NCBI RefSeq assembly: GCF_963921235.1 | Contig: NC_086097.1 | Span: 110,362,001-110,426,000, forward strand | Length of the DNA stretch: 64,000 nucleotides | Direction of reading: 5' to 3' | Source: Mobula hypostoma | Taxonomy: Eukaryota | Shown: in pieces, positions 9,583-54,027 of the stretch | How the letters are laid out: every line of letters starts with the position of its first letter | Position numbering within the stretch: position 1 is the stretch's first letter | The notes under the pieces: model-generated | What the model was told of the DNA's origin: nothing | The model's database searches: none | The model's input: only the letters and a program-made list of their open reading frames with translations | Position numbers and translations under genes: made by a program

Positions 9583-9785
9583 AAACAACAGGAATTCTGC
9601 AGATGCTGGAAATTCAAGCAACATACATCAAAGTTGCTGGTGAACGCAGCAGGCCAAGCAGCATCTATAGGAAGAGGCGCAGTCGACGTTTCAGGCCGAG
9701 ACCGGTCTCGGCCTGAAACGTCGACTGCGCCCCTTCCTATAGATGCTGCTTGGCCTGCTGCGTTCACCAACAACTTTGATGTATG
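9583..9785. mobile_element. Miniature fold-back Penelope-like (PLE) terminal element
   Basis: 82-bp arms 9622-9703/9704-9785, no spacer, 2 mismatches; 39-bp extra tail on the left; 15-bp TSD TCACTATATATATGA (9568-9582, 9786-9800). Confidence 0.93.
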
Positions 9786-10412
9786 TCACTATATATATGA
9801 TGTGCTTTTGTGGGGATTCTCTGAAGAGGAGGTTTCTGAAGCCCTTAATATTTTGATCACATGCAATCGAGTGGATAGGAAATTAACTCCAATAAAATAA
9901 AAGGCCCAGCTACAACTGTTCATTTTCTACGATTCCAATGGACTAAGGGCAACAGGATAATTCCGGAGAAGGTCAGAAATAAGGTCCTAGGTATAGCATG
10001 CCCTATGACAAAATAAGGCCTTTGGGGATAGCAGCAGCATCACATACCCCACTTGACTGTGATCCTTCAATCTTTAAACCTTGTGACCAGAAAGACATTG
10101 AGTTGTGTATGGGGCCCTGAGCAACAATGAGTTTTTGAGGCTGCAAAGGAGGCGGCCTCTGCGGCCTCGTCCCTGTCCTCATCCAGAGGTTCTCCTCCTG
10201 GAACTGCAAGTTTCTGTTAAAGATGATATGGCTGTCTGGAGCCTCTGACAGAAGTATGGAGGAAGGAATATTCCTCTGGCTTTTTTGGTCCGAAAGCTTC
10301 CTGATCCTACCGCCAGATACACTGCATTTGAGGAACAGCTTCTTGCCTGTTACTGAGCTTTAGAAAAGACTGAAACACACTTGTCTCCCTTCAGCCTGAT
10401 CTTCCTATTATG

Positions 10413-11251
10413 GCAACGCACAGAAAATGCTGGAGGAACTCAGCAGGCCAGGCAGTATCTATGGAAAAAAGTATAGTTGATGTTTCGGGCCGAAACCCTT
10501 CATCGGGACTGGGAGAAAAGATGAGTTAGAGTCAGAAAGTGGGAGGAGAAAAGGAAGAACCACAAGGTGGTGGATGAAACTGGGAGGGAGGAGGGGTGAA
10601 GAAAGAGAGCTGGAAAGTTGATTGTTGAAAGAGATACAAAGCTGGAGAAGGTTGAAAGAGATACAAAGCTGGAGAAGGTTGAAAGAGATACAAAGCTGGA
10701 GAAGGTTGAAAGAGATACAAAGCTGGAGAAGGGGGTATTGGATAGAAGAGAGCAGAAGGCTATGAAAACAAGGGAAGGGGGAGGAGCCCCAGAGGGAAGT
10801 GATAGGCAGGTAGGGAGATAAAGTGGGAGAGGGAAATGGGATTGGGGAATGTGAGGGGGCATTCCCGGAAGTTCGAGAAATCAATGTTCATGCCATCAGG
10901 ATGGAGGCTACCCAGATGGAATATAAGGTGTTGCTCCTCTGACCTGAGTGTGGCCTCATCACGGCAGTGGAGAAGACAATAGATTGGTATGGGAATGGGA
11001 AGTGGAATTAAAATAGCTGGCCTGGGAGATCTCGCTTTTTCTGGTGGACAGAGCATAGGTGCTCGATGAAGCAGCCTCTCACTCTACGTCGAGTCTCACC
11101 GATATACAAAAGGCCTCACCAGGAGTACTGGACAACAGGCTCACAGGAGATGTGTCGCCTCACCTAGAAGGACTGTTTGGGGTCCTGAATGGTAGTGAGG
11201 CGGTAGGTGAGGACAAGAGGAACCATACGTGCACGATATGGAAGAGATGCA
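10413..11251 (-). mobile_element. Older PLE 3' fragment (GIY-YIG C-terminus, 3'UTR, degenerate hammerhead)
   Basis: EQHLIFHLGSLHPDGMNIDFSNFR; homologous to 31017-31784; interrupts the ERV at LPIM|WVL. Confidence 0.9.
10624..10731. repeat. Tandem repeat, 4 x 27 bp GTTGAAAGAGATACAAAGCTGGAGAAG
   Basis: Four identical head-to-tail units inside the PLE 3'UTR. Confidence 0.95.
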
Positions 11252-11378
11252 ATATGGGGTGGGTACTCTGACACACTCACCCATAAGCTAGGGCATGCAC
11301 AATGAAGTTCAATCATCGACTGCAAGTGGTATATTTCTGAAGAGGCATCAAACGGACCGGACGGAAATGGTAAAATAC

Positions 11379-11591
11379 ACGAATGAGAAAATCTGCAGAT
11401 GCTGGAAATCCAAAGCAACACACACAGAATGCTGGAGGAACTCAGAAGGTCAGGCAGCATCTATGGAAAGGAATAAACAGTCGACGTGTCGGGCTGAGAC
11501 CCTTCTACGGGACCTTAGAAGGGTTTCCTTCCCGAAGAAGGGTCTCGGCCCTGGCTTGCTGAATTCCTCCAGCATTCTGTATATGTTGCTT
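11379..11591. mobile_element. Older miniature fold-back PLE terminal element
   Basis: Inverted PLE ends (CAACACACACAGAATGCTGGAGGAACTCAG / CTGAATTCCTCCAGCATTCTGTATATGTTG); 11-bp TSD TGGTAAAATAC (11368-11378, 11592-11602). Confidence 0.85.
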
Positions 11592-11904
11592 TGGTAAAAT
11601 ACTTGAACTGGTTGCTGGGTCCCCTCAGGCTATGTCACTGAAGCTTGAAGTTACTCTGGCCTGCTGTGTGGGGAGTTCCCTTTCATCTGCTCAACAGCAG
11701 CATAGGTCAGTGATATGGCAGAACGGTCGGCATTGTGGGAAGGGTGCTACCTTTAACCTTCTCACCCAACACGCTCTGAGGAGGAAAGGCCTGAGGTGTT
11801 GAGTCAATATGCAGAGCTTGTAGCAGTGCAGACTGTTATTATGCATGAAACAGGTGAAGATCATATTATATTGATACCTGGGCTGTTGCTAACGGACTTG
11901 CTGT

Positions 11905-12040
11905 CTACAAAGAAGAGAAAATCTGCAGATGCTGGAAATGCAAGCACACACACAAAATGCTGGAGGAACTCAACAGGTCAGGCAGCATCAATAGAAAAAA
12001 ATACAGTCGACATTTTGGGCTGAAACCCTTTAGCAGGACT
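11905..12040 (-). mobile_element. Short PLE terminal fragment
   Basis: Same PLE end sequence, stopping at the hammerhead remnant; imperfect TSD GACTTGCTG/GACTTGTTG within the ERV RNase H. Confidence 0.8.
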
Positions 12041-12299
12041 GACTTGTTGGCGAGGTAGAGCCAGTAGTCTTATACTGTTATGGGGTGTCTCTTTTGGGAA
12101 GCGGAGTTGCAAAAGGACATTTAGGTCTGATCATCGCATGTTACCATTACAGTTTACTGTGTCGACACCCATTTGAGAGATGATTTGCCGATGATAAGAT
12201 TTAACAACATTGCTGACAAATTCACTTGTGTTGACAAGGTGACATCAAGCCCCCAGTCTCAAATAACGTTATTGCCACTTGGTCAGTGGGCCCATGATG

Positions 12300-13137
12300 T
12301 GGTGAAGTTAAGATGGTGATAAACGGCAAATCCTTTGCTTGCATCTTCAAAAACAGCTCTTCTTCTATCTTTGATATCTCTCTTTTTTTTCCTTTTCAGA
12401 GTATTGAGGGGGTTCTCTTGAAGACTTTGACCTGGAGTTACACTTTGACTTTGGTTCTTTGAAGGAATGGGACCCGCTCTCAGGGCCTCACGACCGGCTG
12501 CTTTTTGATATCCCAAGGACGCGGCCTGGAAGACTAGCACGCCTTCAGGGTGCTGGATTTCATAGCTCTGGGGAAGGGCTGTTTCTAGGCCGGTGCCGCT
12601 GACTGAGGCGTCGTGGGAGAACGCAGAACATCGGGAGCAGCGGGTTAGCTGCCGGGGGTTGTGTGTCCGGAGAGCTGTGCCTTTTTGGTGCCAACTCTCC
12701 CTCCGGGTGCAGAGCTCAGAGAAAGTGACGCATCAGACTTTCAATATCATAAATCAGGGAGTTGTTTGATGTCTTTCCCTCTCACTGTGAAACGGGGGCA
12801 TCGCTTTTTCCCTTATTAAGGAGAGAGCGAACCTGTGGTATGTCGAATTATTGGGTAAATATGTAGTTTTTGGGATACTGCAAGTCTGTGTCTTTCTTGA
12901 TGCTTTGCTGCACACTTGTGCTCGGTGGAGGGTGCTGATGCTTCTTTGCTGGTGGGCAGTCGGCGGGGTCATCGTCTTGCTGCTTGCGTGTTGGAGGGGG
13001 AGTTGGGAGGGGGGTTTTGGGGCTGTAACGTTTTAACTGTCTTTCATTCTTTGGGGCATTCCTGTTTTTCATGGATGCCTGTGAAGAAAAAGAATTTCAG
13101 GATGTGTATTGTATACATTTTTCTGACATTAAATGAA
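12300..13137 (+). mobile_element. Non-coding LINE-tailed element with AAGATGG head, inserted in the ERV integrase HHCC
   Basis: Starts AAGATGGTG; ends in a Rex-like tail (aagaatttcaggatgtgtattgtatacat..attaaatgaa); flanks CCATGA/CCACGA rejoin QWAH|ESSGH. Confidence 0.7.
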
Positions 13138-13928
13138 TCCACGAGTCTTCTGGTCATCTGGGGGTACAGGCTACCATGGAGTGGTCACGGCAGCGGGGAT
13201 TATTCCTTCCCACTGATAACACTCGTACAGCGGTTGTAGGGAGTTGTGTGCTATGTTTAGAAATTAAGAACTGACAGTGTTTAAAATGACCCGTGGTTGC
13301 TATTCGTCATTGGCATGCCCCGCTCAGATTTGGCAATTAGATTACGTTGGTCCCCTTCCTTTACTTAAGTGCCTCCTCAGTTATTCTGGTCTTTTGTTGG
13401 GAATCCCTACTGTTAAAACTAATCAGGATGGCACCCTTCAGGATTAGAACATCTTGCTTCTGCATAAGGCAAACCTTTTGAAATTCAATCCGATGATGGT
13501 TCAGGGTACAAGAGTGGGGTGTCTCTAATGGTGTATGGTGGGTCTTCCATGTCCCCTATTATCCTTAGGCCAGCGGTTTGATTGATCGAATGAGTGGCCT
13601 ATTAAATCAGCAAATTCATCTTCTTACTACTGCCGATCCCTTGTCTGGATGCTTACCTGTTCTTCCCCATGCTTTGTATAATTTGAACAACTGCCCTTTG
13701 TGTGTGTTGCTTTGAAAGGAGGTACTCTTTTCTGTTAATGACAGGACAATCTTTTCCTTTTGTTCCTGATGGCACAACTGAAAGTGCTGATAGAGCCGAC
13801 TCAGTTCTGCAAGGGAGGGAGGGGGGTAAAGTGTTTGTGACATACCCGTCTTCCCCTCCAATGCAGGGTGAGATTATTGCCGACGGGCAGGGAAGTACAC
13901 CCTGGTGATGGTACAGGATAGAGCCATT

Positions 13929-14005
13929 GTGTGTGTGTGTGTGTGTCTGTTTGTCTGTCTGTGTGTGTTTGTGTGTGTGTGTGTGTGTCTGTCTGTCTGT
14001 CTGTC
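13929..14005. repeat. (GT)n/(GTCT)n microsatellite
   Basis: Read directly. Confidence 0.95.
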
Positions 14006-14317
14006 TAAGGGTTTTGCAATATTCCTGCGAAACGACTGTCATATTGATTGCAATCTGACTCTTGCATCCCCGAGTACAATGTGATGTTTTTAAACCTATC
14101 TCAAACTGTTTTAATTGTCAACAAGATGCTGTTAACGTCCCTTAAGGATGAAAATATATACTTCAATGTGAATGTCGAGGTTAATAATAATTGGATCTGT
14201 ATAATTTTTCATGATAGTATTCGTTTTCAGTCATCCAAGTGATATGCATTCTTCATTTTAAGCAGAAGGAGGAGTAATATATGTCTTTGGCTTGCTCAGC
14301 CATTTAAGAGGGTGAAA

Positions 14318-14816
14318 TGTGTTGTGGTGTATTAAATTTTGTAAAAATATTAGATGAAAGTCTGAACATTTCCAAGTATCTCTTTGTGAGCTCACAGCAT
14401 GTAAGGTGTCTGTACAAGTTAAACACTAGGTTTGTTAAATGTTAGCTAATAGTGGCTGGGTTCTTTCTTGGCCTCAAGGCACTTGTGGCATGGGAACAAA
14501 AGACCAAATAGTTTGACTGTCTCTGCATGTCTCACTAGGCATCTGGAATGATTCCCTATTTATTGAGGCACCTTTCACTCCGTGCCTAGGACAGACCCAC
14601 GGTGATTTCACAAATCGGAATTCAGAGTTCCCCCAACAACAGTGACAACCAAGTCCCCCCAGTGACAGCAACAAATGAGTGGACACTATAAATCGTGAGC
14701 CCTGAAATCTTGGTTATTTACTATGTCATATTTAATGTGATTTATTTGTGCTTTCTATTTTGTGATAATAAATTAGGCTTAAGTTACTTAGTTGTGCTTG
14801 TATGCTTATTACCACA
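14318..14816 (+). repeat. Putative 3' LTR of the class III ERV
   Basis: Purine tract AAGAGGGTGAAA immediately before TGTG; ends ACCACA; TATAAA near 14687 and AATAAA at 14767. Confidence 0.65.
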
Positions 14817-14964
14817 TTTCCTGGTCACTCGAATTGGTTTGATTCTTTGAGTCTAATCAGCCAGCCCATAACATTACCAGTGACATTATACTGTTGTTCA
14901 TTTAACTATATGTCGTATATGAACCTTATGTCAACTAGTACATCTGCAGATGTTTTTGTCTCAA

Positions 14965-19039: not shown

Positions 19040-19328
19040 CTCTTTCACGCCAACCACACTGTTCCAGCTGCTGCCATCCGGGAAATGGTACCGCAGCATA
19101 AAAGCCAGGACCTACCGGCTCTGGAACAGCTTCTTCCACCAGGCCACCAGACTGATTAACTCTTGCTGACACAACTGTATTTCTATGTTATGTTGACTAT
19201 CCTGTTGTACATACTATGTATTATAAATTACTATAATTGTACAGTTGAATGGAGACTGTAAAGATTTTTACTCCTCACGTATGTGAAGGATGTAAGTAAT
19301 AAAGTCAATTCAATTCAATTCAATTCAA
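19040..19328 (+). mobile_element. Rex1-like 3' end insertion with (AATTC)n tail
   Basis: LFQLLPSGKWYRSIKART.RLWNSFFHQATRLIN; same family as 53752-54670. Confidence 0.85.
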
Positions 19329-19707: not shown

Positions 19708-19799
19708 CAACATACATCAAAGTTGCTGGTGAACGCAGCAGGCCAAGCAGCATCTATAGGAAGAGGCGCAGTCGACGTTTCAGGCCGAGACCCTTCGTC
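19708..19799 (-). mobile_element. 92-bp young PLE terminal fragment
   Basis: Matches the left end of the 30055-31784 element; 13-bp TSD AGTCAAACCATAA (19695-19707, 19800-19812); truncated at the hammerhead CTGACGA box. Confidence 0.92.
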
Positions 19800-20283
19800 A
19801 GTCAAACCATAAGGCTTCTTGATTTACTGAATGGACCGAACTGCTGATTTGGCAAAGGCAAAAGGTGGAGGTGTGTATTTCATGATAAATTCTCACTGGT
19901 GCTCCAATATGGTAGTTTTGTCGAACTCTTGTTCTCCTGACCTTGACCACCTAATGGTTAAATGCTGTCTGTTCTACTTATCTAGGGAATTTTCAATTGT
20001 GATCCTCACCAGAGTTTACATACACCCAACTATAATCAAGTGCTTAAGATACCACATGATGCTATCTCCAAACAAGAAACAGTTCACTCTGATGCATTTC
20101 AAATCACAGTCGGAGTCTTCAAACAGGTTTGTTTGAAGAAAATCCTGGCCAATTACCATCAGCATATAACCCGTAGCACCAGAGGTCCCAACACACTGGA
20201 CCACTGTTACACTACAATAAGGGATGCCTACCATTCAATTCCCAGGCTGTATTTCAGTAAATTAGATCACTTGGCTGTCCATT

Positions 20284-27933: not shown

Positions 27934-30868
27934 TCAGATCATTGATCAGTACCAGCTTTGCACTGTGAGACAAGCAGAGCAGCCTTTGTTGGTGCCGACC
28001 AGTGTTAGAGTGGAGAAGATTTGACTCAGCAGGCTTTGGCGACAACAGGCTTGGGTGAGCTAAGTTTCTGATAAGTTTCTTCTTCTTCCTAATTTATCTG
28101 TTAGTGCAGTTAAAAAAAGGGCTCCCGGGGCTGTGTTGTATTCTTTGTGTGAGATGTGGAAATCTGGGAGACCTCCAGCCTCCTGGATAACCACATCTAC
28201 ACCAGGTGCAGTTCAATAACCTTCAGCTCGAACAGGAGACAAAGGTGGTGATAGATAGGAGCTACACGGAGGTAGTCACCCCTAAGTTACAGGAAGCAGG
28301 TACCTGGGTGACTATCAGGAGGGGAAAAGGAAATGGGCAGCCAGTGCAGAGTATCCCTGTGGCTGTTCCCCTCAGTAATAAGTATACTGCTTTGGATAGT
28401 GTTATGGCAGACAGTGTACCTGGGGAGGCACAGTGACTAGGTTTCTGGCACTGAGTCTGCCACTGTGGCTCAGAAGGGAAGAGGGGAGAGAAGGCTGCAG
28501 GAGAGCTAGGGGATTCCATAGTTAGAGGAGAAGATATGAGATTCAGTAGACGTTAAAGAGATATGTGGATGATGTGCTGCTTCCCGGGTGCCGGTGCCAG
28601 GATCAAAGATGTCTCAGATCAGGTCCATGGCATCCTAAAGGAAGAACTTGAGCAGCAAGAAGTCTTGGTACATATTGGCACCAATAACATAGGTAGGAAA
28701 AGGGTGGAGGTCTTGAAGAGAGAATTTAAGGAATTAGATAGAAAGCTAAAAAGCAGGACCTCCAGGGTATTCATCTAGGATGATTTGGCTGATGAATGCA
28801 TGGCTGAGGAACAAAGCGCAGGAGCAGGGCTTCAGACTTTTGGGATCTCTTCTGGGGAATGTATGACCTGTACAAAAGGGATGGGTCACACCTGAACCTG
28901 AGGGGGACCAATATCCTTATGGGCAGGTTTGCTAGAGTTGTGTGCAATGAGCCTGTCAGGAAGGACAAGCATTTGCTAGGGCAAATTTGCAGTCAATGGG
29001 ATGAGTTGCAGTGTAATATGGAGATGAAATCAGAAAGGGCAACAAATATTTGAATATACACAGTTGACGGAATAAGGTAGATGATTTGTAGAGCATTTAG
29101 AGACTGTTAGGTATAATATTGTGGACATTTCTGAGTCATGGCAGTTAGAGATTGGTAGGTATGACTTTATGGGCAGCACTGAATCATGGCTAAAAGAAAA
29201 TCATAGCTGGGACCGAAACATCCAAGGATACACATTGTATCAAAAGGACAGGCAGGTAGGCAGAGGGGTGGGGTGGCTCTGTTGGTAATGAAATCAAATC
29301 TTTACTAAGAGGTGACATAAGATTGGAAGATGTAGAATGCTTGCGGGTAGAGTTCAGAAACTGTAAGGATAAAATAACCCTGATGGGAATTATATACAGG
29401 CCTCCTAACAGGAGCAAGGATATGGGGTATGAATTACAAAGGGAGAGAGAAAACACATGTCAAAAGGGCAATGTTACAATAGATATGCAAGATTTCAATG
29501 TACAGGTATGTTGGGAAAATCAGGATGGTTTTGAATCACAAGAGAAGTTCTAAGAGATGGCTTTTTAGATTAGCTTGTAGTTGAGCCCACTAGAGGAAAG
29601 GCTATGCTGGACTGGGTATTGTGTAATGAACTGGATTTGATCAGGGATCTTACGGTAAAGGAACCTTTATGAGTCAGTGATCATAATATGATAGTCTTCA
29701 CCCTGCAATTTAAAAGTCAAATGTATCAGTATTACGGTGGAGTAAAAGGGACTTATAGAAGCATGAGAGAAGAGCTGGCCAAAGTTGATTAGAAGGAGAT
29801 ATTAGCAGGGATAACAGTAGAACAGGAAGAAATCAGAATAGCGCAGGATAGATATATCCAAAAGATGAAGAAGTATTCTAAGGATGGATGATGCAACCAT
29901 GGCTGACAAGGGAAGTCAAAGACAGTATAAAAGCAAAGAGAAGGCATATAGTAGAGCAAAAAATACTGGGAAGTTAGAGGATTAGGAAACTTTTAAGAAC
30001 TAACAAAGCTACTAAAAAGCCATATGGTGAGAAAAAAATAAAATATGTAGGTCTCAAACAACAGGAATTCTGCAGATGCTGGAAATTCAAGCAACATACA
30101 TCAAAGTTGCTGGTGAACGCAGCAGGCCAAGCAGCATCTATAGGAAGAGGCGCAGTCGACGTTTCAGGCCGAGACCCTTCGTCAAGACTAACTGAAGGAA
30201 GAGTGAGTAAGGGATTTGAAAGCTGGAGGGGGAGGGGGAGATGCAAAATGATAGGAGAAGACAGGAGGGGGAGGGATAGAGCCGAGAGCTGGACAGGTGA
30301 TAGGCAAAAGGGGATACGAGAGGATCATGGGACAAGAGGTCCGGGAAGAAAGACGGGGGGGGGGGTGACCCAGAGGATGGGCAAGAGGTATATTAGGAGG
30401 GACAGAGGGAGAAAAAGGAGAGTGAGAGAAAGAATGTGTGCATAAAAATGAGTAACAGACGGGGTACGAGGGGGAGGTAGGGCCTTAGCCGAAGTTAGAG
30501 AAGTCGATGTTCATGCCATCAGGTTGGAGGCTACCCAGACGGAATATAAGGTGTTGTTCCTCCAACCTGAGTGTGGCTTCATCTTTACAGTAGAGGAGGC
30601 CGTGGATAGACATGTCAGAATGGGAATGGGATGTGGAATTAAAATGTGTGGCCACTGGGAGATCCTGCTTTCTCTGGCGGACAGAGCGTAGATGTTCAGC
30701 AAAGCGGTCTCCCAGTCTGCGTCGGGTCTCACCAATATATAAAAGGCCACATCGGGAGCACCGGACGCAGTATATCACCCCAGTCGACTCACAGGTGAAG
30801 TGATGCCTCACCTGGAAGGACTGTTTGGGGCCCTGAATGGTGGTAAGGGAGGAAGTGTAAGGGCATGT

Positions 30869-31400
30869 CCCACCACTAAGCACATCTTTCCCTCCCCCCC
30901 CCTCTGCATTCCGCAGGGATCGCTCCCTACACAACTCCCTTGTCCATTCGTCCCCCCCATCTCTCTCCACTGATCTCCCTCCTGGCACTTATCTGTGTAA
31001 GCGGAACAAGTGCTACACATGCCCTTACACTTCCTCCCTTACCACCATTCAGGGCCCCAAACAGTCCTTCCAGGTGAGGCATCACTTCACCTGTGAGTCA
31101 ACTGGGGTGATATACTGCGTCCGGTGCTCCCGATGTGGCCTTTTATATATTGGTGAGACCCGACGCAGACTGGGAGACCGCTTTGCTGAACATCTACGCT
31201 CTGTCCGCCAGAGAAAGCAGGATCTCCCAGTGGCCACACATTTTAATTCCACATCCCATTCCCATTCTGACATGTCTATCCACGGCCTCCTCTACTGTAA
31301 AGATGAAGCCACACTCAGGTTGGAGGAACAACACCTTATATTCCGTCTGGGTAGCCTCCAACCTGATGGCATGAACATCGACTTCTCTAACTTCGGCTAA
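30869..31400 (+). pseudogene. PLE ORF C-terminus: Cys-rich linker + GIY-YIG endonuclease (5'-truncated; mirror copy 30485-30868 on minus)
   Basis: GTYLCKRNKCYTC..FTCESTGVIYCVRCSRCGLLYIGETRRRLGDRFAEH..VATHF..LEEQHLIFRLGSLQPDGMN. Confidence 0.92.
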
Positions 31401-31696
31401 GGCCCCACCTCCCCCTCGTACCCCATCTGTTACTCATTTTTATGCACACATTCTTTCTCTCACTCTCCTTTTTCTCCCTCTGTCCCTCTGAATATACCTC
31501 TTGCCCATCCTCTGGGTCACCCCCCCCCGCCGTCTTTCTTCCCGGACCTCCTGTCCCATGACCCTCTCGTATCCCCTTTTGTCTATCACCTGTCCAGCTC
31601 TCGGCTCTATCCCTCCCCCTCCTGTCTTCTCCTATCATTTTGCATCTCCCCCTCCCCCTCCAACTTTCAAATCCCTTACTCACTCTTCCTTCAGTT

Positions 31697-31732
31697 AGTC
31701 CTGACGAAGGGTCTCGGCCTGAAACGTCGACT
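31697..31732 (+). ncRNA. Minimal type I hammerhead ribozyme motif in the PLE 3' region
   Basis: AGTC-CTGACGA-A-GGGT(CTCG)GCCT-GAAAC-GTC-GACT; helix I AGUC/GACU; loopless palindromic helix III (ACGT); predicted cleavage after C31728. Confidence 0.85.
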
Positions 31733-34395
31733 GCGCCTCTTCCTATAGATGCTGCTTGGCCTGCTGCGTTCACCAGCAACTTTGAAATATGTAGGTCTGC
31801 TAGCCAATAATATCAAAGAGGATACCAAAACATTTTTCAGATATATAAGGAATAAAAGAGAGGGGAGAGTAGATATTGGACCACTGGGAAATGACGCTGA
31901 AGAGATAGTATTGGGGAGGACAAGAAACTGGCAGAAAAACTAAATAAATATTTTACATCCATCTTCACTGTGGAAGAAACTAGCAGTATGCTGGAGGTTT
32001 GAGAGTGTCATAGGGCAAAAGTGAGTGCATTTGCTATTAATAGGGAGAAGGGGCCTTGGGAAACTGAAAGGTCTGAAGGTAGAGAAGTCACCTGGACCAG
32101 ATGGACTACACCCCAGGGTTCTGAAGGAGGTAGCTGAAGAGATTGTGGAGGCATTACTAGTGATCTTTCAAAAATCACTACATTCTGGCATGGTTCTGGA
32201 GGGCTGGAAAATTGCAAATGTCCCTCCACTCCAGCAAGGGCTGGAGGAAAAAGAAAGGAAATTATTGGACAGTTAGCCTGGCTTCAGCGGTTGGGATGAT
32301 GTTGGAGCTGACTGTCAAGGGTGAGGTCTCAGGGTGCTAAGACACATGATAAATTAGGACAAAGTTCAGCGTGGTTAACTTAAGGGAAAACCTCGTCTGA
32401 CAAAATTGTTGGAATTTTTAAGGAAATCACAGACAGGATAGACAAAAGGAGAATCTGTGGATTTCAGAAGGCCCTTGACAAGATGTTACACATGAGGCTG
32501 CTAAACAAGATGAGAGCATGATAGAGCATTGGCTGATTGACAGGAGGCAAAGAGTGGGAATAAAGGCAGCCTTTTCTGTTTGGCTGCTGGGGACTAATAG
32601 TGTTCCACAGGTGTCGGTGCCGGACTGCTTTTTATGTTATACATCAATGATTTGGATGAAAGGATTAATAGCATTGTGGCCAAGTTTGCAGACAATATGA
32701 GGCAGGTAGTGTTGAGGAATCAGGGAGGCTGGAGAAGGACATAGGCAGATTAGGAGAATGGGCAAAGAGGTGGCAGATGGAATACAGTGTCGGGAAGTGT
32801 ATGGTCATGCACTTCAGCAAAAGGAACAAGAGCATAGACTGCTTTCTAAACGGGGAGAAAATTCAAAAATCCGAGGTGCAAAAGGACGTGGGAATCCTTG
32901 TGCAAGATTCCCCAAAGGTTAACTTGCTGGTTGAGTCAGAGAAAGGCAAATGCTGTGTTGGCAATTTTTTGAGAGGAATAGAAAATACCCCCTCAACAAC
33001 AGATATATCAATTTAGCAGCTATATTTTCTTTAGTCAGAGAGTAGCTGTGGAATTCTTTGCCACGGGCAGCTGTGGGGGCCAAATCTTTATATATATTTA
33101 AGGCAGAGGTTGATAGATTCTTGATTATTCAGGGCATAAGGAGATATGTTTGAAGGCAGAAATTTAGGGCTGAGAGGAAAATTTAATCAGCCTCGTTGAA
33201 ATGGTGGAGTGGACCCGATGGGCCAAGTGGCCTAATTCTGCTCCTATATCTTAAGGTCTTATAAAAGCAAGGATGTAATGCCAAGGCTTTATTCTCTCTG
33301 GTGAGGCCTTACTTGGAGTGTTGTGAACTGTTCTGGGCCATTTACCTAAGAAACGATGTGCTGACACTGGAGAAGTTCCAGAGGGGGTTTATGAGAATGA
33401 GGAGGATATGATGGCTTTCAGCCTTTACTCAATGGAATTTAGAAGACTGAGGGGGGATCTTATTGAAGCCTATCAAATGTCAAAAGGCCCATAGGGAATG
33501 GATGTGGAGAGAATGTCTTCCTATTGTGGGGGAGTCTCGGACCAGAGGGCACAGCCACAGAATAGAGGGACATTCATTTAGAGTGGCGATGAGAAGGAAT
33601 TTCTTTAGCCTGAGGATGTTGAATCTGCGGAATTCATTGCCACAGACAGCTGTGGAGACCAGGTCATTTGGTGTATTTAAGGCAGAAGTTGATAGGTTCT
33701 TGATTAGTTAGGGCGTGAAGGTTATCGGGAGACACCAGGAGAACGGGGTTGAGAGGGAAAATGGATCAGCCATGATGAAATGGAGGACAGACACAAAGGG
33801 TCAAATGGCTTAATCCTGCTCCTATCTCTTATGGTCTTATGGTCATGTGAAATGGAAGCACTGACTTGAGAGGCCAGGTGGCCTGCTGTTTCATTGCAAC
33901 AAAGGTTTGTGTTTCCGGTTTGGTAAGGCAGAAAGACACAAATCCCCGTCATCTACTTAGAACCAGAAAACTTTGTTTATTAGGACAGAATAGCATGCGT
34001 TAAAACACTTATCTAGTTATGCACAAACTCTTCTCTCTGCAGCATATCTTCAATTCTGCTCGTTACTAGCCCATCTGTGAAGCCCCGCAAAAACCTTTGA
34101 GCCCCTAACTCCTCTACTTTTATGCCCATTCCACTGTTGCAGTAAGTGAACCAGCTGAAACCACTGAACCAGAACCAATCTTCAGTTGTCACCACACTTC
34201 ACAAATCCCACCCCTTGGCACACCTGACTTTCATGTTCCCACAGCTGGATTCTCTCTGACACCATGTTGTATTCCCACTGTACATTGCATTTTCACGGTC
34301 CCTGTCACGTACATTCAATGGCAGACCACAGTGGTGGTGCTGGGCTTGTTGGAGATCAGAGTTTCCCTTGGAGAACTTTTTTTGGATTGTAGGGG

Positions 34396-37790: not shown

Positions 37791-38077
37791 AAATATGCCA
37801 GTTACAATAAACCTGGTTCAAATACTCATTCAAAAGATGCATTTAATGTACTATTATCTTCACCTGTAGAGGGCAGAATTGGCTGAATGTTGCCTATTAA
37901 GCAAAGAGAACATTTCAATTGTGGCTTAAACTGATGAAAATTAACATTTTAGGTTTGCCATCAGTTCAAATCTGATTCTCTTTGAGCTGCTGTGGAATTA
38001 GAGCTCAGCAGGTGGAAAATTAAATGTTCATCAAAATTTCATTACAAAGTAGCCCAAAACCTCAGAATGAATGATAA

Positions 38078-38200
38078 ATAAGAGAAAATCTGCAGATGAT
38101 GGAAATCAAAGCAACACACACAAAATGTATGAGGAACTCAGCAGGCCAGGCTGCATCTATGGAAAAGAGTAAACAGTCAGCTTTTCAGGCTGAGTCCTTT
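38078..38200 (-). mobile_element. Short old PLE terminal fragment (another at ~39725-39805)
   Basis: agagaaaatctgcagat..gaggaactcagcaggccagg; ends in a hammerhead remnant. Confidence 0.75.
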
Positions 38201-40815: not shown

Positions 40816-40894
40816 CTTCCTTTGTTGTTTCGTGGCAGCAGTACATTGCTATACATAGTAATAAAATCTATAAATGACATAAAAAGTATATTTA

Positions 40895-43585: not shown

Positions 43586-46542
43586 CTTCCAGATTCGTTT
43601 TCAAGCTTCTCGATATGGACTCTCTGAGGAGCCCAGGTACACACATTCAATTAACTGATTCTCCCACTGCGTTCTACGTGCCACACTTTCCGCCATGAGG
43701 AGGTACCTGATGTCCCTATCCCAGTCACTTCCACAACTCCGGGATTCTCTCTTCACCGCCTGTAATGGACCTTCTTTATCCTCCACCGGATCTACGCTTT
43801 CAATCGCCGGTTCTTTGACTTTCTCATGCCCTGCAAGGATCGGAAGATTGCCCGTCTACAGACCACAGAACCCACTGACTCCAACGCCAGCAGGCCTGGA
43901 TGACTCCAGACCACGACCCTGCCGCTGACCTCAGCAGCTCTAATAATCCAGAGCAGATTAGAACCAGGACTCCACCGTCATCAAGGCAGGTTCCAACGAC
44001 CTTGGGCATCTCCAAAGTGCTGATTACGCAACTTTCGACTCTGACTCCGGCCTTGACCTCCAGGCCAGGTCTTCACACACTGCCACAGGAATCCCTGTCT
44101 CCCCTTTCCCAGCCACCACTCTGCAATCCCATTTCTCTCAGGTCCCACTGCCAGCTCCTGGGCCCTCGGAGACTCCATATTCCTCTCACCCTACCATCCC
44201 TGAACACCCCAAACCTCCCTTCCCCTCAGACACTACCAACCCCCTTCCCCCCCCATCCGATCCCAGCTCTCATCCATGCCATTTCCACCATCTCCTCCAC
44301 CTTCCCCTCTCTGAGGAAGAATGTTCTGTCATCAGTAAGGGCCTCAACTTTGTCCCCCTGCACCTCAGTGAATTCCATGCCTGCCACGATGCTGAGGACT
44401 TCTTCCACTGCCTCCGTCTTCAATCCTACTTCTTTGGCAAGGACTCTCCTGCCCACACCGATGACCCCCTCTCCCATCTTCAACCCTCCTCTTCTTCCTG
44501 GACACCCTGCCCTGGTATTCTGCCTGCTCTGGACCTTTTCTTTGCCAACTGCCGATGGGACATCAACCATCACGACTTCAACACTCCTTTCTCCAATTCA
44601 AACCTCACTCCTTCTGAACGCTCAGCTCTCCACTACCTCCACACCAATCCTAGCCTCACCATCAAAGCTGCAGATAAAGGGGGTGCTGTAGTAGTCGTCT
44701 GGACTGACCTTTACCTTGCTGAGGCCCAGCGACAAATCTCAGACACCTCTTCTTACTTATCTCTCGAACAGGACCCCACTAAAGAACACCAGGTCATTGT
44801 CTCCCACACCATCACCAACCTTACTGACTCTGGGGATCTCCCATCCACTGCCACCAACCTCATAGCTCCTGCACCTCACACCTGCCGTTTCTATCTCCTG
44901 CCCAAGATCCATAAACCTGCTTGTCCAGATAGACCCATTGTTTCAGCTTGTTCCTGCCCCACTGAACTCCTATCAGCATACCTCGACTCTGTTTTATCCT
45001 CGCCCCTTCCCCCATTTCAGTCCCTTCCTACCTACATCTGGGACATTTCACAATACTCTGGATCTTTTCAATGATGGGTCCCAGTTATGCCTGCCTGTTT
45101 GTTGGCTACATGGAACAGTTTATGTTCCAAGACTACACTGGTGACCATCCCACACTCTTCCTATGCTACATCAACGTCTGCATTGGTGCTGCTTCCAGCA
45201 GCTGTGCTGAACTCATCAATTTCATCCACCTTGTCTCCAACTTCCACCCTGCCCTCAAGTTTACCTGGTCCATTTCCGACACTTCCCTCCCCTTTCTTGA
45301 TCTCACTGTCTCTGACTCTGGAAACAGCTTATCCACTGATGTCTATTATAAACCCACAGACACTCACAGCTGCCAGGACAATGCCTCTTCCCACTCTGTT
45401 ACTTGTAAAAATGCCATTCCCTTCCCTCAATTCCTCTGCCTCCACCGTATCTACTCTCAGGATGAGGATTTCATTCTAGAACAAAGGAGATATCCTCCTT
45501 TTTCAAAGTAAGTGGCTTCCCTTACTCCACCATCAACGCTGCCCTCAACTGCATCTCTTACGTTTCACGCACGCCTGCTCTTACCCCATCCTCCCGCCAC
45601 CCTACCAGGGATAGGGTTCCTCTTGTCCTGACCTACCAACCCACCATCCTTCACATCCAGCACATACTTCTCTGAAACTTCAACCACCTCCAACAGGATC
45701 CCACCACCAAGCACATCTGCCCCCCCCCACAACTTTCTGCTTTCCACAGGGATCACTTCCTACACGACTTACTTGTCCATTCATCCCTCGCCACTGATTT
45801 CCCCCCCCCCCCCGGCACTTATCCTTGCAAGTGCTACACCTGCCCCTACACCTCCTCCCTCACTACCATTCAGAGCCCTAAACAGTCCTTCTAGGTGAGG
45901 GGACACTTCACCTGTGTGTCTGTTGGGGTCATATACTGTATCCGGATCTCCCAGTGTGGTCTCTTGCATATCGATGAGACCCAATGTAGATCGGGAGACT
46001 GCTTCGCTGAGCACTTACACTCCATCCACCAGAGAAAGCAGGATCTTCCAATGCTCCCCCCATTTTAATTCCGGTTCCCATTCCCAATTTGATATGTCTA
46101 TCCATTGCCTCCTCCACTGTCGTGATGAGGTCATTCTTAGGTTGGAGGAGCAACGCTTATATTCTGTTTGGCTAGCCTCCAACCTGATGGCATGAACATT
46201 GATTTCTCAAACTTCTGGTAATGCTCCCCAACCCCCTCTCTTTCACCATTTCCCACCTCCTTTTCCCTCTCTCACCTTATCTCCTTGCCCACTCATTGCC
46301 TCCCTCTGGTGCTCCTCACCCTTTTCTTTCTTCCATGACCTTCTGCCTTTTTCACCAATTTACTTTGCCCCTTCAGATTTCACTTATCACCTTGAGTTTC
46401 TCTCCCCTCCCTCCTCCTTTTTACTACGCTCCTCAGCTTTTTTTCTCCAGTCCTGCTGAAGGGTTTGGCCTGAACTGTTGACTGTACTCTTTTCCTAGAT
46501 GCTGCCTGGCCTGCTGAGTTCCTACAGCATTTTGTGTGTGTC
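43586..46542 (+). mobile_element. Long decayed Neptune-type PLE (RT + GIY-YIG + 3'UTR + degenerate hammerhead ~46449-46483)
   Basis: IKAADKGGAVV, RFYLLPKIHKP..RPIVSAC, MGPSYACLFVGYME, DVYYKPTD; imperfect TSD ACTCAAACAAG/ATTCAAACTAG inside Gypsy gag. Confidence 0.92.
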
Positions 46543-48905: not shown

Positions 48906-49145
48906 CTTCTTCTTCTTTGGTTGTCCATCGAAATCCGATGATGACGATGTCCACTCCTTTAACGGTGAGATCTTTGATGACTACACAGTCCTATCCTGGA
49001 CCCACAAGCTCTATTGCAGGTGGGACATGTATATGTGGTAGTGGTGGCAACCATGGCTGCATTTCTCCTGGTTCTCTTCTGCTGTCTTCTGGTTGTTCTT
49101 TCCATCTCCAGAATACGAACCCCGTCCCTACACAGCTGTCGCCAA
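48906..49145 (-). mobile_element. RTE-clade LINE 3' end
   Basis: C-terminal YTCPTCNRACGSRIGLCSHQRSHR; (GAA)n tail; TSD GTTAGAAGCGTT/GTTAGAAACATT. Confidence 0.88.
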
Positions 49146-50893
49146 GTTAGAAACATTGCATGAAGGTCACCTGGGTACAGTCAAGATGAGGAGTCTCTCC
49201 CAGAGTTACATGTGGTGGCCTGGAATAGATAAGCAGATCAAAGACTTGGTCAAAAGCTGTTCGGGATGCTAAAAGGTTCAAAGTGCACCCCCACAGGCAC
49301 TGTTACACCCATGGGAGTAGCTGTCTTCACCATGGCAAAGAGTATATATTGATTTTGCTAGGCCATTCATGCTCTCCATGTTCCTGATTGCTGTGGATGT
49401 TCATTTGAAGAGGCTGGGGATTATACCAATGAAGTGAACCACCTCAGCAAAGACTGTCTCTGCTGAAAGGTTTATCCAAACCTTTAAGAACTCCATTAAA
49501 GTGATAGATAAGAAGAACATTTCTCTACAGCACAAGGTTGTCAACTTCCTTTTTGTGTTCAGAACTTTGTTCATGAGACGACAAATCAAACACCTGCAAT
49601 GCCGTTCATGAACAGGATTCTGAGATCTCGCAAAGACCTCCTGAAACTAGATCTACGGAGGGAAGTGCAGAATAAACAGTTCAGCCAGTTGCCAAGTGAA
49701 GCAGCAAGGAACTGCGAGGTTGGACAGGAAGTCCTAGTATGTATTACTGAGAAGACAAGCAGACACCCAGTAGAATAGCTACAAGATCTACACTGATGTA
49801 CAAATGGATGTTGGAGATCAGACATGCAGACGTCATGTGGACCAGATACTGGATGCTCAATGGAAGAACACACCTGCATCAACTGTATTCAACAAGACGG
49901 ATATATTAGAGTCACCAAACTTACCTCTCATTTATGACATCACTGATAGCAACGTGACACTGGAAACCAAGAACGTTGTCTTAGACAAGAAACCTACGAA
50001 ACCTGATGCCACTCCACAGGTCCAGATGCATGATGAGAATGTTATTGTTGACAAGTCACCTGCCAAACCTGATGCCTCTCCACAGGTCCAGAGGCGTTAT
50101 CCGGAAAGAAACAGAGAGCCACCCAAAACACTGAATCTTTAGAACTGTGAAGTTAGTTATGGACTCCTCAGAGACATTGACACCGAGGAACTTGAAAGTG
50201 TTCACCCTTTCCACTTCTGATCCCTTGATGAGGACTGGTGTGTTTTCCCTCAATTTACCCTTCCTGAAGTCTACAATCAATTCCTTCACCTTACTGACAT
50301 TGAGGGCAAGGTTTTTGCCGGACACTGCTCAACCAGCTGGTCTATTATGCTCCTGTACACCTCTTTATCACCATCTGAATTTCTGCCAACAATAGTTGTG
50401 TCATCAGCAAATTTTTAGATGGCATTTGTGCTGTGCCTAGACACACAGATGTGGGTGTAGAGAGAGAAAAGCATCCTTGATGTGTGCCAATATTGATTGT
50501 CAGCGAAGAGGAGATGTTATTTCCAATCTGCACAGACTGTGGTCTCCCAATGAAGAAGTCAAGGAACCAGTTGCAGAGGGAGGTACAAGGCCCAGGTTTT
50601 GGAGCTTTTGATTAGAACTGAATGTATGATTGTGTTGAACACTAAGCTTTAGTCAATAAACAGCGCCTTAATGTAAGCATTAGTATTGTCCAGGCGATTC
50701 AAGGCTGAGGGGAGAATCAGTGAGATTGCATCCACTGTAGACCTGTTGTGGCAACAGGCAATTTGCAGTGGGTCCGGGTCCTTGCCATGACTAACCTCTC
50801 AAAGCACTTCATCATAGATGTGAGTACAACTAGGTGATGGTCATTGAGGAAGCTCCCTCTGCTCTTTTTTACTTGTAAAGTAGTGGCACAGTA

Positions 50894-51174
50894 GCCACTA
50901 AGATGGCCAGGTGGTTAAGGCGTCAGTCTAGTGATCTGAAGGTCGCTAGTTCAAGCCTCAGCTGAGCAATGTGTTGTGTCCTTGAGCAAGGCACTTAACC
51001 ACACATTGATCTGTGACGACACTGGTGCCAAGCTGTATGGGTCCTAGTGCCCTTCCCTTGGACAACATCGGTGGCGTGGAGAGAGGAGACTTGCAGCATG
51101 GGCAACTGCCAATCTTCCATACAACCTTGCCCAGGCCTCAGTCATCATCGAAAATCGATGAACAGCTGAAGAAG
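50894..51174 (+). mobile_element. tRNA-headed SINE with CORE-like domain and RTE tail
   Basis: TGGCCAGGTGGTTAAGGC and TAGTTCAAGCC boxes; GTGTCCTTGAGCAAGGCACTTAACC; tail GTCATCATCGAAAATCGATG..GAAGAAGA; 12-bp TSD AGTGGCACAGTA. Confidence 0.85.
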
Positions 51175-51868
51175 AGTGGCACAGTATTAGCAATAGTAAA
51201 TTAGTACAGAACGACATAATACAATCCCAGAAGTTGCACACAGTGTGTACTCTGATGACTGAATGAGAATAATGTTGTACACAAACAACACAGCATGCCC
51301 ACAGAAACAACCACTCCACAATTGCAGTTCTACTCTCAAAAACTTCATATGGAGAAAGTGGACGATATCTGTGTTATAACTCTAGGTAGTTGAGAACCTG
51401 GTGAAGTGAAAGAACTAGAGTTTGAGGGCAGAGGTGGCAGGTGTTAGGGAGGTGACAGAAAGTGGCCTGTGAAAGATTATGGATATGGAAGTAAAACGCA
51501 AATTCAGAGGAAAACAACCTGAGAGAGCTGTTGCCGATGTTCATTGAAGTTAAAGGGATGTAGAATGATGGTAATAGCCTCAGTTGAGCCAATATGAAAC
51601 CAAACAATTTTTTTTCTTTGGAAATGCAAGTCTTAATTCATTGAAAAGAGCGAATGAATTTTACCATTAGCATAGTGACCATTTTCCATGATATCTTAGG
51701 AAGACCAGGAATAACCTGAGGGGAGCTGTTCTGCAAGGTGAAGGCAGGTTGCGAGCAAGTTTCCAACCCATTGCCTCGTATAATGATACCAAATATGATT
51801 ATTCAGACTTTGAAACATGTAATGGAAAGGAAGACACGTTGAAAATATGCAGCAAGAAGCCAAACCTG

Positions 51869-52438
51869 TGTGACCCTCTGGTTCCGCCAACAGCGTTAGT
51901 CTAGGGAAGACGGTCTCTGGCCCTGCCAATCGTCAGAAATCTGACGTGCAAAACCTCTTGCTTGTGTGGATGCTGTGTGATCTGTTCCCCCGTTACAAAT
52001 CAGTACCATGAAATAACAGGCAGTACACCATATGCAATTAAATGATTTAGCTTTATAATTCTTAATTTGAGTAAAGAAAAACCAAAAGAAAGGGGCCCAT
52101 TTTAATGAAACAGTCTAATGTGCACATGTTGGAGCTCACGGTTTCCCATCTGCTAGTCCTCCATCGTTTTCCCTGGGCATCATCGACTCCTGGCCCCACT
52201 CCAAGTCTACTCCAGCCTGCTGTCTACGACCTCTCCTTTCTGGTGTCTTCCCTCTTCATCTCCCGCCGAGCAAAAGACCCAGATCACCTCGTTCTCAGGC
52301 ACACAACAAGAAAATAAAACACTCCCTTCATTGGACGATGCACATGCCAAAGCCCCAGTTATCTCTAGCCATGACCCAAACACTGCTGCTACAGAAAAAC
52401 CATTACATTAGCAGTGAATCCTTTCCCAGGGTGTTACA
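51869..52438 (-). repeat. Probable solo LTR-like element
   Basis: Termini TGTGAC...GTTACA with extended inverted similarity (CCCTCTGG/CCAGGG); no clean TSD found. Confidence 0.45.
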
Positions 52439-53775
52439 CAGTAATTTACAGCAGCTAGTTAAGCTGTCACCATGTCCTTGGAGTGTTACACTTAGTTTAC
52501 AGATGGAGTGCCAGTGTTACTGTGTGGTCATCCATGAAAAATTTAGGAACAGTGAAAGTGATGATACAGTTTAGAATCTCTAAGCAGAACATATGATTTG
52601 TGTCCCATTTTATTTACACTTTGGTTTACATCTGTCAAAAGTGTAATCAGAAGGAAGTCAGCATATTCTTAAAATATGCCTAATCAAAATTAGAGTTCAA
52701 CAAATCAGCAATATCAAATTTTCAGCACATAATGCACCCAGAAAGAAAGTATAAGACAAAGGACAATAAGGAAAAATGAGGATCAGATCCAGACTGTTGT
52801 GGGGCAGTCAGCACTTATCCTGACAGTGATGGCATCCCAGATTGTGGAAGGCACTTCCATCATTGAGTGTCAAGGCAATGCTCCAGGAACACATACGCCC
52901 CGAATAAGTGCATCCGCCTCACACCTACCCACCTGCATGCCCCATCTGAGGAAGAGTCTGCAGTTCCCACTTTGTCCTCATTAGCAACATCAAAGCACAC
53001 AAAACCAGCATGTCTTTCTCAATGTTGAGGGACTGCTTAAGGAACACTTTGATTCTGCTTGTAACCCATTGCTTATAAATTACTCGCCATATGAAAGGAA
53101 GGATTTCCTTTGAAAATAAAGAATTTTGTGCACGTGTTTTTTTTTGTAATCTCTGTTGTACCTTTATTTTCATTCATTTTTGTCATTTCTCTCGGTGTTC
53201 CAAAGTCATATGGGTTAGGGTTAGTCATCTGTGGGCATGCTATCCTGGCACCAGAAGTGTAACGGCACTTCTGGGCTGCCGCCAGCCCAATCCTCGCTGG
53301 TTTGATTTGACACAAATGATGCATTTCATTGTAGGTTTCAATGTACATGTGACAAATAAAGCTAACCTTTAATCCATCAGTTTATAGCCTAAAGGGCAGC
53401 TGGAAATTGTGAAGATCACAGACGGCAGGAACAGGCTTTGTATGTCTTTGCAATTTTCTCATCAGCTTTGCAGTTCGAGAGCTCTTGAGAAGACAGACTG
53501 TGTCTCCACATTACTTGAACAATCCAACTCATAAATGCAAAGAAAGGAGATTATTTGGCCACTAGGACCTTGCTGGCTTCCAGGAAAAATTGTGTTTACA
53601 AGTTTTTGCCACTGAGTTCTTCCAGCGGTTTGTTTTTCACTCCAGACTCCAGTCTGCAGTCTTGTGTCTTGAGCAATTGTAGTAGTTTCATTCTCCATCT
53701 CCTTATTTTCCTTATTCCTGCTCCCCTTTGCTTCCCCTTTGATTCTTCCTATGAATTGGATTGAACTGACTTTAT

Positions 53776-54027
53776 AAAAATTGCTGGTGAATGCAGCAGG
53801 CCAGGCAGCATCTATAGGAATAGGTACAGTCGATGTTTCGGACCAAGACCCTTCGTCAGGACTAACTGAAAGAAGAGCTAGTAAGAGCTTACAGTTAGTC
53901 CTGACGAAGGGTCTTGGCCCGAAACGTCGACTGTACCTATTCCTAGAGAAGCTGCCTGACCTGCTGTGTTCGCCAGCAACTTCTAGGTGTGTTGCTTGAA
54001 ATTCCAGCATCTGCAGATTTCCTCGTG
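53776..54027. mobile_element. Miniature fold-back PLE terminal element with two hammerhead motifs
   Basis: Inverted arms around a ~22-bp spacer; 14-bp TSD TGAACTGACTTTAT (53762-53775, 54028-54041). Confidence 0.92.
53897..53932 (+). ncRNA. Minimal type I hammerhead ribozyme motif
   Basis: AGTC-CTGACGA-A-GGGT(CTTG)GCCC-GAAAC-GTC-GACT; antisense partner at ~53828-53863. Confidence 0.85.

Follow-up and report, generated by a model that had tools for sequence, protein, structure and literature searches.

The 64,000-nucleotide (64-kb) stretch of the Mobula hypostoma genome analyzed here (contig NC_086097.1, positions 110,362,001 to 110,426,000; called the window) contains four fold-back insertions in which two copies of the 3' region of a Penelope-like element (PLE), a retrotransposon, are joined head to head within one target site duplication (TSD). 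An annotation made from the letters alone, referred to below as the original prediction, had placed these insertions at 9583-9785, 11379-11591, 30055-31784, and 53776-54027 with TSDs of 15, 11, 14, and 14 bp, and repeat finding confirmed all four, as well as the outward orientation of the 3' ends (4/4 cases). In each of the four, one arm reaches a common terminus, which in the youngest family reads ...CCAGCATCTGCAGAATTCCTGTTGTTTG, and the other stops 34 to 47 nt before it; we refer to these as the T and S arms, respectively. Positions within the element (ref) are those of the reverse complement of window positions 30055-30868, an 814-nt sense sequence in which ref p corresponds to window position 30869 minus p, the terminus is ref 814, the hammerhead core lies at ref 684-690, and the predicted hammerhead cut is at ref 711/712. 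An outer end is scored as T when it lies at most 14 nt from ref 814 and as S when it lies 25 to 68 nt before it. The features are as follows.

9568..9582, no strand: left TSD copy of mini fold-back 1, TCACTATATATATGA, 15 bp; identical copy at 9786-9800
9583..9703, minus strand: T arm of mini fold-back 1, with tail; antisense PLE 3' region, ref 693-813
9704..9785, plus strand: S arm of mini fold-back 1, without tail; ends 38-39 nt before the terminus
9786..9800, no strand: right TSD copy of mini fold-back 1, same as 9568-9582
11368..11378, no strand: left TSD copy of fold-back 2, TGGTAAAATAC, 11 bp; second copy at 11592-11602
11379..11591, no single strand: fold-back 2, old; T arm on the minus strand at ~11379-11512, S arm on the plus strand at ~11513-11591
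30041..30054, no strand: left TSD copy of the long fold-back, AAATATGTAGGTCT, 14 bp; second copy at 31785-31798
30055..30868, minus strand: T arm of the long fold-back, 814 nt; encodes the GIY-YIG C terminus; serves as ref
30869..31784, plus strand: S arm of the long fold-back, 916 nt; ends 39-44 nt before the terminus
31697..31732, plus strand: putative minimal hammerhead motif, read from the sequence; helix I 5' strand AGUC, CUGACGA at 31701-31707, helix II, GAAAC at 31721-31725, GUC at 31726-31728
31785..31798, no strand: right TSD copy of the long fold-back, same as 30041-30054
53762..53775, no strand: left TSD copy of fold-back 4, TGAACTGACTTTAT, 14 bp; second copy at 54028-54041
53776..53885, minus strand: S arm of fold-back 4; ends ~45 nt before the terminus; 87% identical to ref
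53888..54027, plus strand: T arm of fold-back 4, with tail and intact hammerhead motif; 86% identical to ref
53897..53932, plus strand: putative hammerhead motif of fold-back 4; CUGACGA at 53901-53907, GAAAC at 53921-53925, GUC at 53926-53928
54028..54041, no strand: right TSD copy of fold-back 4, same as 53762-53775

The first fold-back, a 203-nt mini, forms an inverted repeat (9621-9703/9704-9786) of 83 nt at 98% complementarity with a spacer of 0, and its center is the palindrome GAGACC/GGTCTC (slashes mark junctions) at 9703/9704; 38 nt are extra at the outer end of its left arm. This T arm (9583-9703; 121 nt) matches that of the 30055 element at 100% identity, the S arm (9704-9785) contains just the 3' half of the motif for the hammerhead, and the CUGANGA box is entirely absent from the mini. 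In fold-back 2, the decayed S arm is 34 nt shorter than the T arm at the outer end; it is visible as an inverted repeat (arm complementarity, 87 to 91%) and was missed by BLAST. The arms of the long fold-back pair over ~775 nt at 97 to 99% identity, with the left arm 39 to 44 nt longer at the outer end and a 148-nt unique center (30869-31016) that is colinear with the S arm, and those of fold-back 4 pair over 98 nt at 89%, with the right arm ~45 nt longer. Still-alignable arms in the three short fold-backs measure 45 to 98 nt, and arm lengths overall, expected at ~80 to ~770 bp, were found to be ~80 to 775 nt. T-arm identity to the reference arm is 100% (9583), 86% (53776), and 79% (11379), indicating, as had been proposed, that at least three subfamilies of different ages share the geometry.

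By their sequence, the fold-back arms are 3' regions of a canonical endonuclease-bearing (EN+) PLE. The open reading frame (ORF) at 30861-31400 matches the Pfam GIY-YIG family PF01541 over 30864-31397 (E value, 5.8e-5; 23.7 bits; cutoff, 22.6), and it carries CKRNKCYTC upstream of that domain in the same frame, a linker of the CX2-5CxxC type given as a clade marker of canonical EN+ PLEs in PMC8557442 (a source cited here from an excerpt, as are PMC3846280, PMC4209133, PMC7229834, and bioRxiv 10.64898/2026.07.22.740005). Both long arms encode this C-terminal domain, on opposite strands and in mirror image. Directly in front of a 3478-nt unit, 0.36 Mb upstream of the window, is a 381-nt tailed partial 3' copy, a pseudo-long terminal repeat (pLTR). 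The long reading frame of the unit begins within the tail and heads toward the GIY-YIG domain; a partial 3' copy also lies upstream in 30/30 loci having the tail-to-ORF junction, in a search that selected for an upstream copy. The upstream partial-tandem pLTR, the inverted 5'-truncated copy with a tail at one end, and the short TSD found here are further marks of EN+ PLEs. For the upstream frame of the 3478-nt unit, two decayed pieces gave no Pfam family; a language-model look-up of that frame pointed, as a lead only, to clusters named "reverse transcriptase domain-containing" or DUF8422 (0.97).

A hammerhead ribozyme motif, CUGACGA-A-GGGUCUCGGCCU-GAAA-CG-UC, lies ~290 nt downstream of the GIY-YIG region. 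At both 31697-31732 and 53897-53932 it has the form CUGACGA-A-GGG...CCY-GAAA-CG-UC, in agreement with the four hallmarks listed for the minimal hammerhead ribozymes (min-HHRs) of PLEs in the excerpt of PMC4209133, and cleavage is predicted after 31728. Rfam gave no family at gathering score in the whole 64-kb window and no hammerhead at an E value of ≤10 in 31640-31800, with the three listed matches at chance level; the Rfam models expect helix III, which is absent from min-HHRs, and this may account for the failure. The ribozyme call, and with it the original description of the insertions as hammerhead associated, is therefore a call on the motif (helices I and II), which fits the min-HHR hallmarks and has no Rfam match. 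In the long fold-back, the hammerhead core differs between the arms, being CUUGACGA in the T arm (30179-30185, minus strand) and CCUGACGA in the S arm (31701-31707, plus strand); the T-arm C3-to-U change would be expected to kill the ribozyme.

A geometry-blind census covered 1.664 Mb, of which 1.064 Mb surrounds the window and 0.6 Mb comes from two further contigs, with copies of a single reference family mapped by BLAST against ref and the 3.5-kb unit. Outer ends are bimodal among copies of ≥85% identity, with 45/100 lying 0 to 2 nt from the terminus, 0 at 15 to 24 nt, and 31 at 30 to 47 nt; the clustering of short-arm endpoints, a check proposed with the original prediction, is thus borne out. 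Among 37 pairs of 3'-end copies within 120 nt, 33 are -/+ (5' ends joined), 2 are +/+, 1 is -/-, and 1 is +/-, the last being a chaining artifact. An exact TSD of ≥9 bp surrounds 21 of the 33 fold-backs, compared with 3 of 300 random position pairs, and several of the remaining fold-backs have TSDs that on inspection are decayed or offset.

The outer ends of the 33 fold-backs are coupled: 28 are T/S, 4 are S/S, and 1 is T/T. Isolated solos comprise 73 T and 33 S (n = 106), from which independent ends would give 15.7 T/T, 14.2 T/S, and 3.2 S/S (chi-square P = 1e-6), and the heterotypic share exceeds the maximum possible of 0.5 (P = 7e-5). T/S pairs account for 20 of the 21 TSD-verified units, and the lone T/T fold-back has no TSD. 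The asymmetry is strong, not absolute; the "fixed" asymmetry originally proposed describes all four window cases and most of the census, with the S/S and T/T units as exceptions. A candidate rule that the S arm is always the longer one was refuted by an insertion at contig positions 158664-160616 with a T arm of 1833 nt and an S arm of 119 nt. Fold-backs make up ~1/4 of the units with a 3' end (33/139), and the density of ~115 3'-end copies per Mb corresponds to ~4e5 copies by extrapolation to 3.48 Gb; summed contig depth is in the millions over the repeat and ~10 to 100 on unique flanks.

Individual loci illustrate the range of forms. The 64-kb window holds about ten PLE 3'-end copies, including a 93-nt solo S-type stub at 19708-19800 (minus strand; TSD, TTATGGTTTGAC) that is 100% identical to ref 685-777, begins within the hammerhead core, and ranks with the window's youngest insertions. 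Older copies of 74 to 79% identity lie at 43592-46521 (plus strand), 10413-11200, 11908-12044, and 38076-38200 (all minus strand), and 56061-56556 (plus strand), and they include a 2.9-kb near-full-length PLE that ends at the S site. One census insertion (L048:3144-3482; G000:C1:110599144-110599482; TSD, ATGGATTACTAA) contains three copies of the same RNA end in the order of two tandem antisense S-type stubs and then one sense T-type stub. An old S/S fold-back (L116:4389-4567; census contig 54389-54567) lies directly at a (CA)n microsatellite, which agrees with the microsatellite bias reported for PLEs.

We consider it likely that each fold-back is a single PLE insertion, with two 5'-truncated copies placed head to head in one TSD after a staggered cut supplied two 3' ends that each primed reverse transcription, at two adjacent RNA start sites. 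In the proposed sequence of events, PLE RNA would start in the pLTR, with the S and T sites ~100 to 135 nt from its 5' end and also near the 3' end of longer transcripts. A staggered cut of 9 to 16 bp would be followed by priming from both 3' ends, and each DNA end would use a different one of the two sites, on the same RNA or on sister RNAs, giving one tail per insertion. Both complementary DNAs (cDNAs) would run toward the RNA 5' end and would be joined when one jumps onto the other as a template, and cDNAs that run to the same point would give a head-to-head junction without a spacer. Starts at the 5'-proximal S/T sites would yield the ~200-bp hairpins and ~100- to 135-bp solos, and starts further downstream would yield the long forms; the minis are probably run-off copies of the RNA 5' leader, from a 5' end just upstream of the hammerhead motif.

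Dual-strand priming fits the single TSD around two outward 3' ends, the 33:4 orientation bias, the variants shared between arms, and the behavior of a PLE protein in vitro, which cleaves and extends both strands and uses two adjacent reverse transcription start sites that delimit the tail (PMC11167929). This component of the original prediction is therefore supported, though it is not new. The accompanying suggestion that one arm is primed at the RNA end and the other internally does not hold, because longer copies run through the T end into the ORF; the T end is thus not the RNA end, and both start sites are internal.

The best-placed competing explanation, although we judge it unlikely, is snap-back self-priming, in which the 3' end of a single cDNA folds back and copies itself to give a palindromic junction. 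Self-priming, possibly on an antisense template, was proposed and favored for PLE inverted repeats by the authors of PMC3846280 (excerpt), and it would suit both the zero- or near-zero-spacer palindromic junctions that are common here and the presence of the same subfamily variants on both arms. It does not suit the outer ends: an S-primed cDNA cannot regain the tail, a cDNA started at T would need an unexplained stop ~38 nt early, and S ends cluster at a site that solos also use, which marks S as a start site rather than a stop. Under self-priming a unique center should also be colinear with the T arm, whereas the 148-nt center of the long element is colinear with the S arm, and the S arm is longer in 9 and the T arm in 3 of the first-census T/S pairs whose arms differ by >15 nt. 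The extension of both strands in vitro (PMC11167929) argues in the same direction.

We see very little room for a second alternative, in which the ~200- to 250-bp hairpins are themselves transcribed and retrotransposed as a nonautonomous unit. A search of its own genome with the 203-nt mini (9583-9785) recovered near-full-length matches of 90 to 100% at 40/40 scored loci of 1070 candidates, as a propagating unit would give, but the search itself favors fold-backs of similar length. All 30 look-alike loci that were kept have their own 13- to 18-bp direct repeat (≤1 mismatch) and unrelated flanks. Their center junctions differ (for example, GAGACC/GGTCTC, GAGACC/CTGACGAAGGGTCTC, TCAGGCC/GGTCTC, and TC/GGTCTC), with the arms meeting over ~±20 nt around the hammerhead core and with small fillers, and junctions in the unbiased census range over ref 653-769. 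At the 30 loci, S ends occupy a range of ~14 nt (ref 767-781); the T end hardly varies, apart from four loci that are 6 nt longer. Some loci do have an identical junction, the string GAGACCCGGTCTC being common to 4/30, but these differ in subfamily variants, S ends, and TSDs. A copied unit should moreover show one reverse transcription start and one arbitrary 5' truncation, whereas both ends here are S/T sites. Neither the 30 look-alikes nor the census showed the shared internal junctions, bounded by the unit's own ends, that mark short interspersed nuclear elements or miniature inverted-repeat transposable elements (MITEs). Because the junctions vary and both outer ends fall at the S/T start sites, each hairpin is made anew rather than copied as a unit; the ~200-bp hairpins are dead-end by-products and not a self-copying element, and the self-propagating mini-element that the original prediction thought recurring identical junctions might reveal is not found.

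Least probable of all are two independent insertions (one PLE beside or into the 5' end of another), an assembly artifact, or a DNA-transposon fold-back or MITE: the pLTR is itself a possible target of the PLE endonuclease (PMC11167929), assemblies have trouble with tandem and inverted structures of PLEs (PMC8557442, excerpt), and inverted repeats with TSDs are MITE-like, but one TSD surrounds both arms in 21/33 units versus 3/300 controls, the 33 -/+ pairs compare with 1 +/- pair and T/S coupling is strong, arm divergence of 1 to 13% is graded with age, short-read contigs of run X1 (maybe the source sample) span the flank-arm boundaries at 9412-9604 and 9759-9848 with no mismatch, and a DNA transposon would not account for asymmetric ends, TSD lengths of 9 to 16 bp, and arms that are the 3' end of a retroelement. 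The read contigs yielded no empty-site allele, the joints listed for them having sides of <30 nt and stemming from further repeat copies.

The inner ends bear on the RNA that was copied. Both inner ends lie beyond ref 600 in 24/33 fold-backs, and 36/48 inner ends of the 24 short fold-backs are at ref 671-704; likewise, the 5' end is at ref 671-702 in 7/16 young solos, five of the seven with an exact TSD. None of the 94 tabulated ends (48 + 16 + 30) falls at ref 709-715, around the predicted hammerhead cut, and so the pile-up marks the 5' edge of the ribozyme motif and not the cleavage site. Judging from these ends, hammerhead-cleaved RNA is not a common template, and the position of the pile-up off the cut agrees with the use of unprocessed RNA as the in vitro substrate, where hammerhead cleavage is not required (PMC11167929). 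An initiator-like TCAGTT with its A at ref 676 (a motif match only) lies at the pile-up, and the excerpt of PMC8557442 situates the Penelope transcription start site in the pLTR.

Composite insertions provide a second view of the RNA 5' end. Nine of the 30 tail-to-ORF loci consist of a piece from ref X to 814, then the ORF region from its start to a point N, and then a piece from ref X' to S or T; X and X' agree within 4 nt in 7 of the 9 (range of X, ref 637-720; P ≤ 1e-5 versus random draws), and a single 9- to 15-bp TSD surrounds 8/8 composites checked. At loci L133, L136, L146, L149, L153, and L158, a partial pLTR is followed by the first 250 to 1530 nt of the ORF region and then the same pLTR piece, which begins at the same nucleotide as the first. 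The composites suggest jumps back onto the same RNA, in which reverse transcription may reach the same RNA 5' end twice per event with an internal jump back between. Amplification of a master copy was rejected as their origin, the one composite junction searched being present at only 2/40 scored loci (851 candidates), as was splicing at a CAG acceptor-like site (ref 675-677), since the breakpoints vary (ref 637-720) and coincide in each element with its own 5' end.

T/S pairing, together with the same variants on both arms, makes one RNA or sister RNAs the most likely template of a fold-back; at ref 739, 7 loci carry the minor allele on both arms and 2 carry it on a single arm, and the arm-to-arm difference is 1.5%. 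A stronger form of this reading, which we advance tentatively and rate somewhat below an even chance, is that one RNA is copied two or more times per event. The two DNA ends would occupy the two neighboring start sites of that RNA, which would explain why a fold-back has exactly one tail, and the cDNAs would run off its 5' end just upstream of the hammerhead and be stitched together by template jumps.

Several observations weigh against the explanation that we favor. The upstream pLTR starts of 30 longer copies are broad (8 at ref 676-705, 7 at 637-665, and 11 at <600), and hence the RNA does not start at a single sharp position; its 5' end probably lies near the inner-end pile-up, judging from DNA copies only. 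For the fold-backs themselves, the idea that both arms run to the same end is unsupported, the inner ends of the two arms not being significantly alike (median difference, 12.5 versus 17.6 shuffled; P = 0.1; n = 24). Over four polymorphic positions, minor-allele arm sites are discordant at 10 and concordant at 11, which suggests room for two different RNAs in some events; two are CpG sites, and another shows S-arm discordance three times. The 4 S/S fold-backs, one of them with a clean 12-bp TSD, are not predicted by a single-RNA, two-site scheme. Fold-backs whose short or decayed arm is missed by BLAST, including those at window 11379-11591 and contig position 945358, are counted as solos and inflate the solo T count, and the census is tied to one reference family and to fixed T/S cutoffs. 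Finally, no start-site difference between strands is seen in vitro (PMC11167929).

Within the tail, a box reading TTCCAGCATCTGCAGA (window 30062-30077, minus strand) is kept in ≥90% of 102 aligned copies that differ by up to 35%, and it is complementary to AGATGCTG, ~55 nt upstream. The box could be a protein or endonuclease recognition site, as reported for the Penelope tail; covariation is weak. The last 85 nt gave z = -1.05 in a single-sequence fold and nearly no conserved structure in RNAalifold across the 102 copies. A named structure of this segment is paired in 89.8% of cells, a figure that reflects its derivation from the first sequence, and double-sided changes are confined to the tail stem-loop (3/5 pairs), where they are suggestive only and probably at the subfamily level.

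The geometry, the one-sided tail, and the TSD are already published, and the fold-backs are ordinary members of the known PLE pattern. An adjacent inverted 5'-truncated copy with a 30- to 40-bp tail at one end is PLE architecture (PMC3846280 and PMC8557442, excerpts), and Pen2a of Adineta vaga and other EN+ PLE units have the same head-to-head inverted copy, one-sided tail, and short TSD around the unit. According to the excerpt of PMC3846280, an inverted pLTR falls 37 bp short of the direct ones in length, one inverted pLTR bears a 31-bp tail, the junction contains palindromes, and a 9-bp TSD encloses the complete unit; Pen2a, as here, has one inverted repeat ~37 bp shorter and a one-sided tail of ~31 to 40 bp, and junction palindromes, the pLTR hammerhead motif, the C-terminal GIY-YIG domain, and the partial tandem upstream of long copies are also alike. 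Paired min-HHRs 100 to 700 bp apart on opposite strands are described as well (PMC4209133, excerpt). Here, in contrast to the known EN+ PLE units, extreme stubs with ~80- to 135-nt arms and no coding part make up the great majority, the copy number is very high (the ~115 3'-end copies per Mb given above), TSDs are mostly 13 to 16 bp rather than the 8 to 10 bp of A. vaga, and the one-tail rule is counted rather than described. In the literature compared, we found no count of start-site pairing within one insertion and no reading of stubs as 5'-leader run-off copies.

L1 twin priming is a related process in which the 3' end of the second DNA strand primes on the RNA, not on the first cDNA, producing an inverted segment within one TSD. 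L1 copies two adjacent parts of the RNA and thereby creates an inversion, whereas PLE fold-backs copy the same 3' part twice. One L1-like twin-priming case was seen among the PLE copies (L074:3370-3641), with ref 543-644 inverted next to ref 647-814.

The closest experimental comparison is PAc, the Poseidon element of Anolis carolinensis (PMC11167929), which has the same two RNA-internal adjacent start sites bounding the tail, with the start sites downstream of the hammerhead and both strands cleaved and extended. For PAc, the template is not hammerhead-cleaved RNA, and here 0/94 ends are at the predicted cut. The two differ in that no strand difference is seen for PAc in vitro, whereas one S and one T end are combined in 28/33 insertions here, and in that the ORF opens inside the tail here, whereas in PAc it begins at hammerhead stem II. 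Animal non-LTR retrozymes are PLE-derived hammerhead repeats (PMC7229834; bioRxiv 10.64898/2026.07.22.740005; both excerpts) and, like the hairpins, are short noncoding pLTR derivatives with hammerhead motifs; retrozymes form head-to-tail tandems thought to yield circular RNAs, whereas the hairpins are inverted pairs. A hairpin transcript would thus carry at most one sense hammerhead.

Among retrotransposon mechanisms, that of PLE integration is understood least, and an in vitro PLE system first became available in 2024. The value of the fold-backs lies not in their geometry, which is ordinary and already in print, but in the in vivo statistics on PLE integration that ~1e5 to 1e6 stub insertions give, covering start-site co-use per event, cDNA ends, and joining. 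The predominance of T/S units, the near absence of T/T, and the composites with the same 5' end twice place constraints on the second half of the reaction. For annotation, the hairpins should be masked as PLE fragments and not as MITEs, hairpin RNA genes, or new elements. If the one-RNA reading is true, hundreds of thousands of ~100- to 250-bp stubs would be a fossil map of the RNA start and of two reverse transcription start sites, and they would show that hammerhead-cleaved RNA is unused as a template in vivo.

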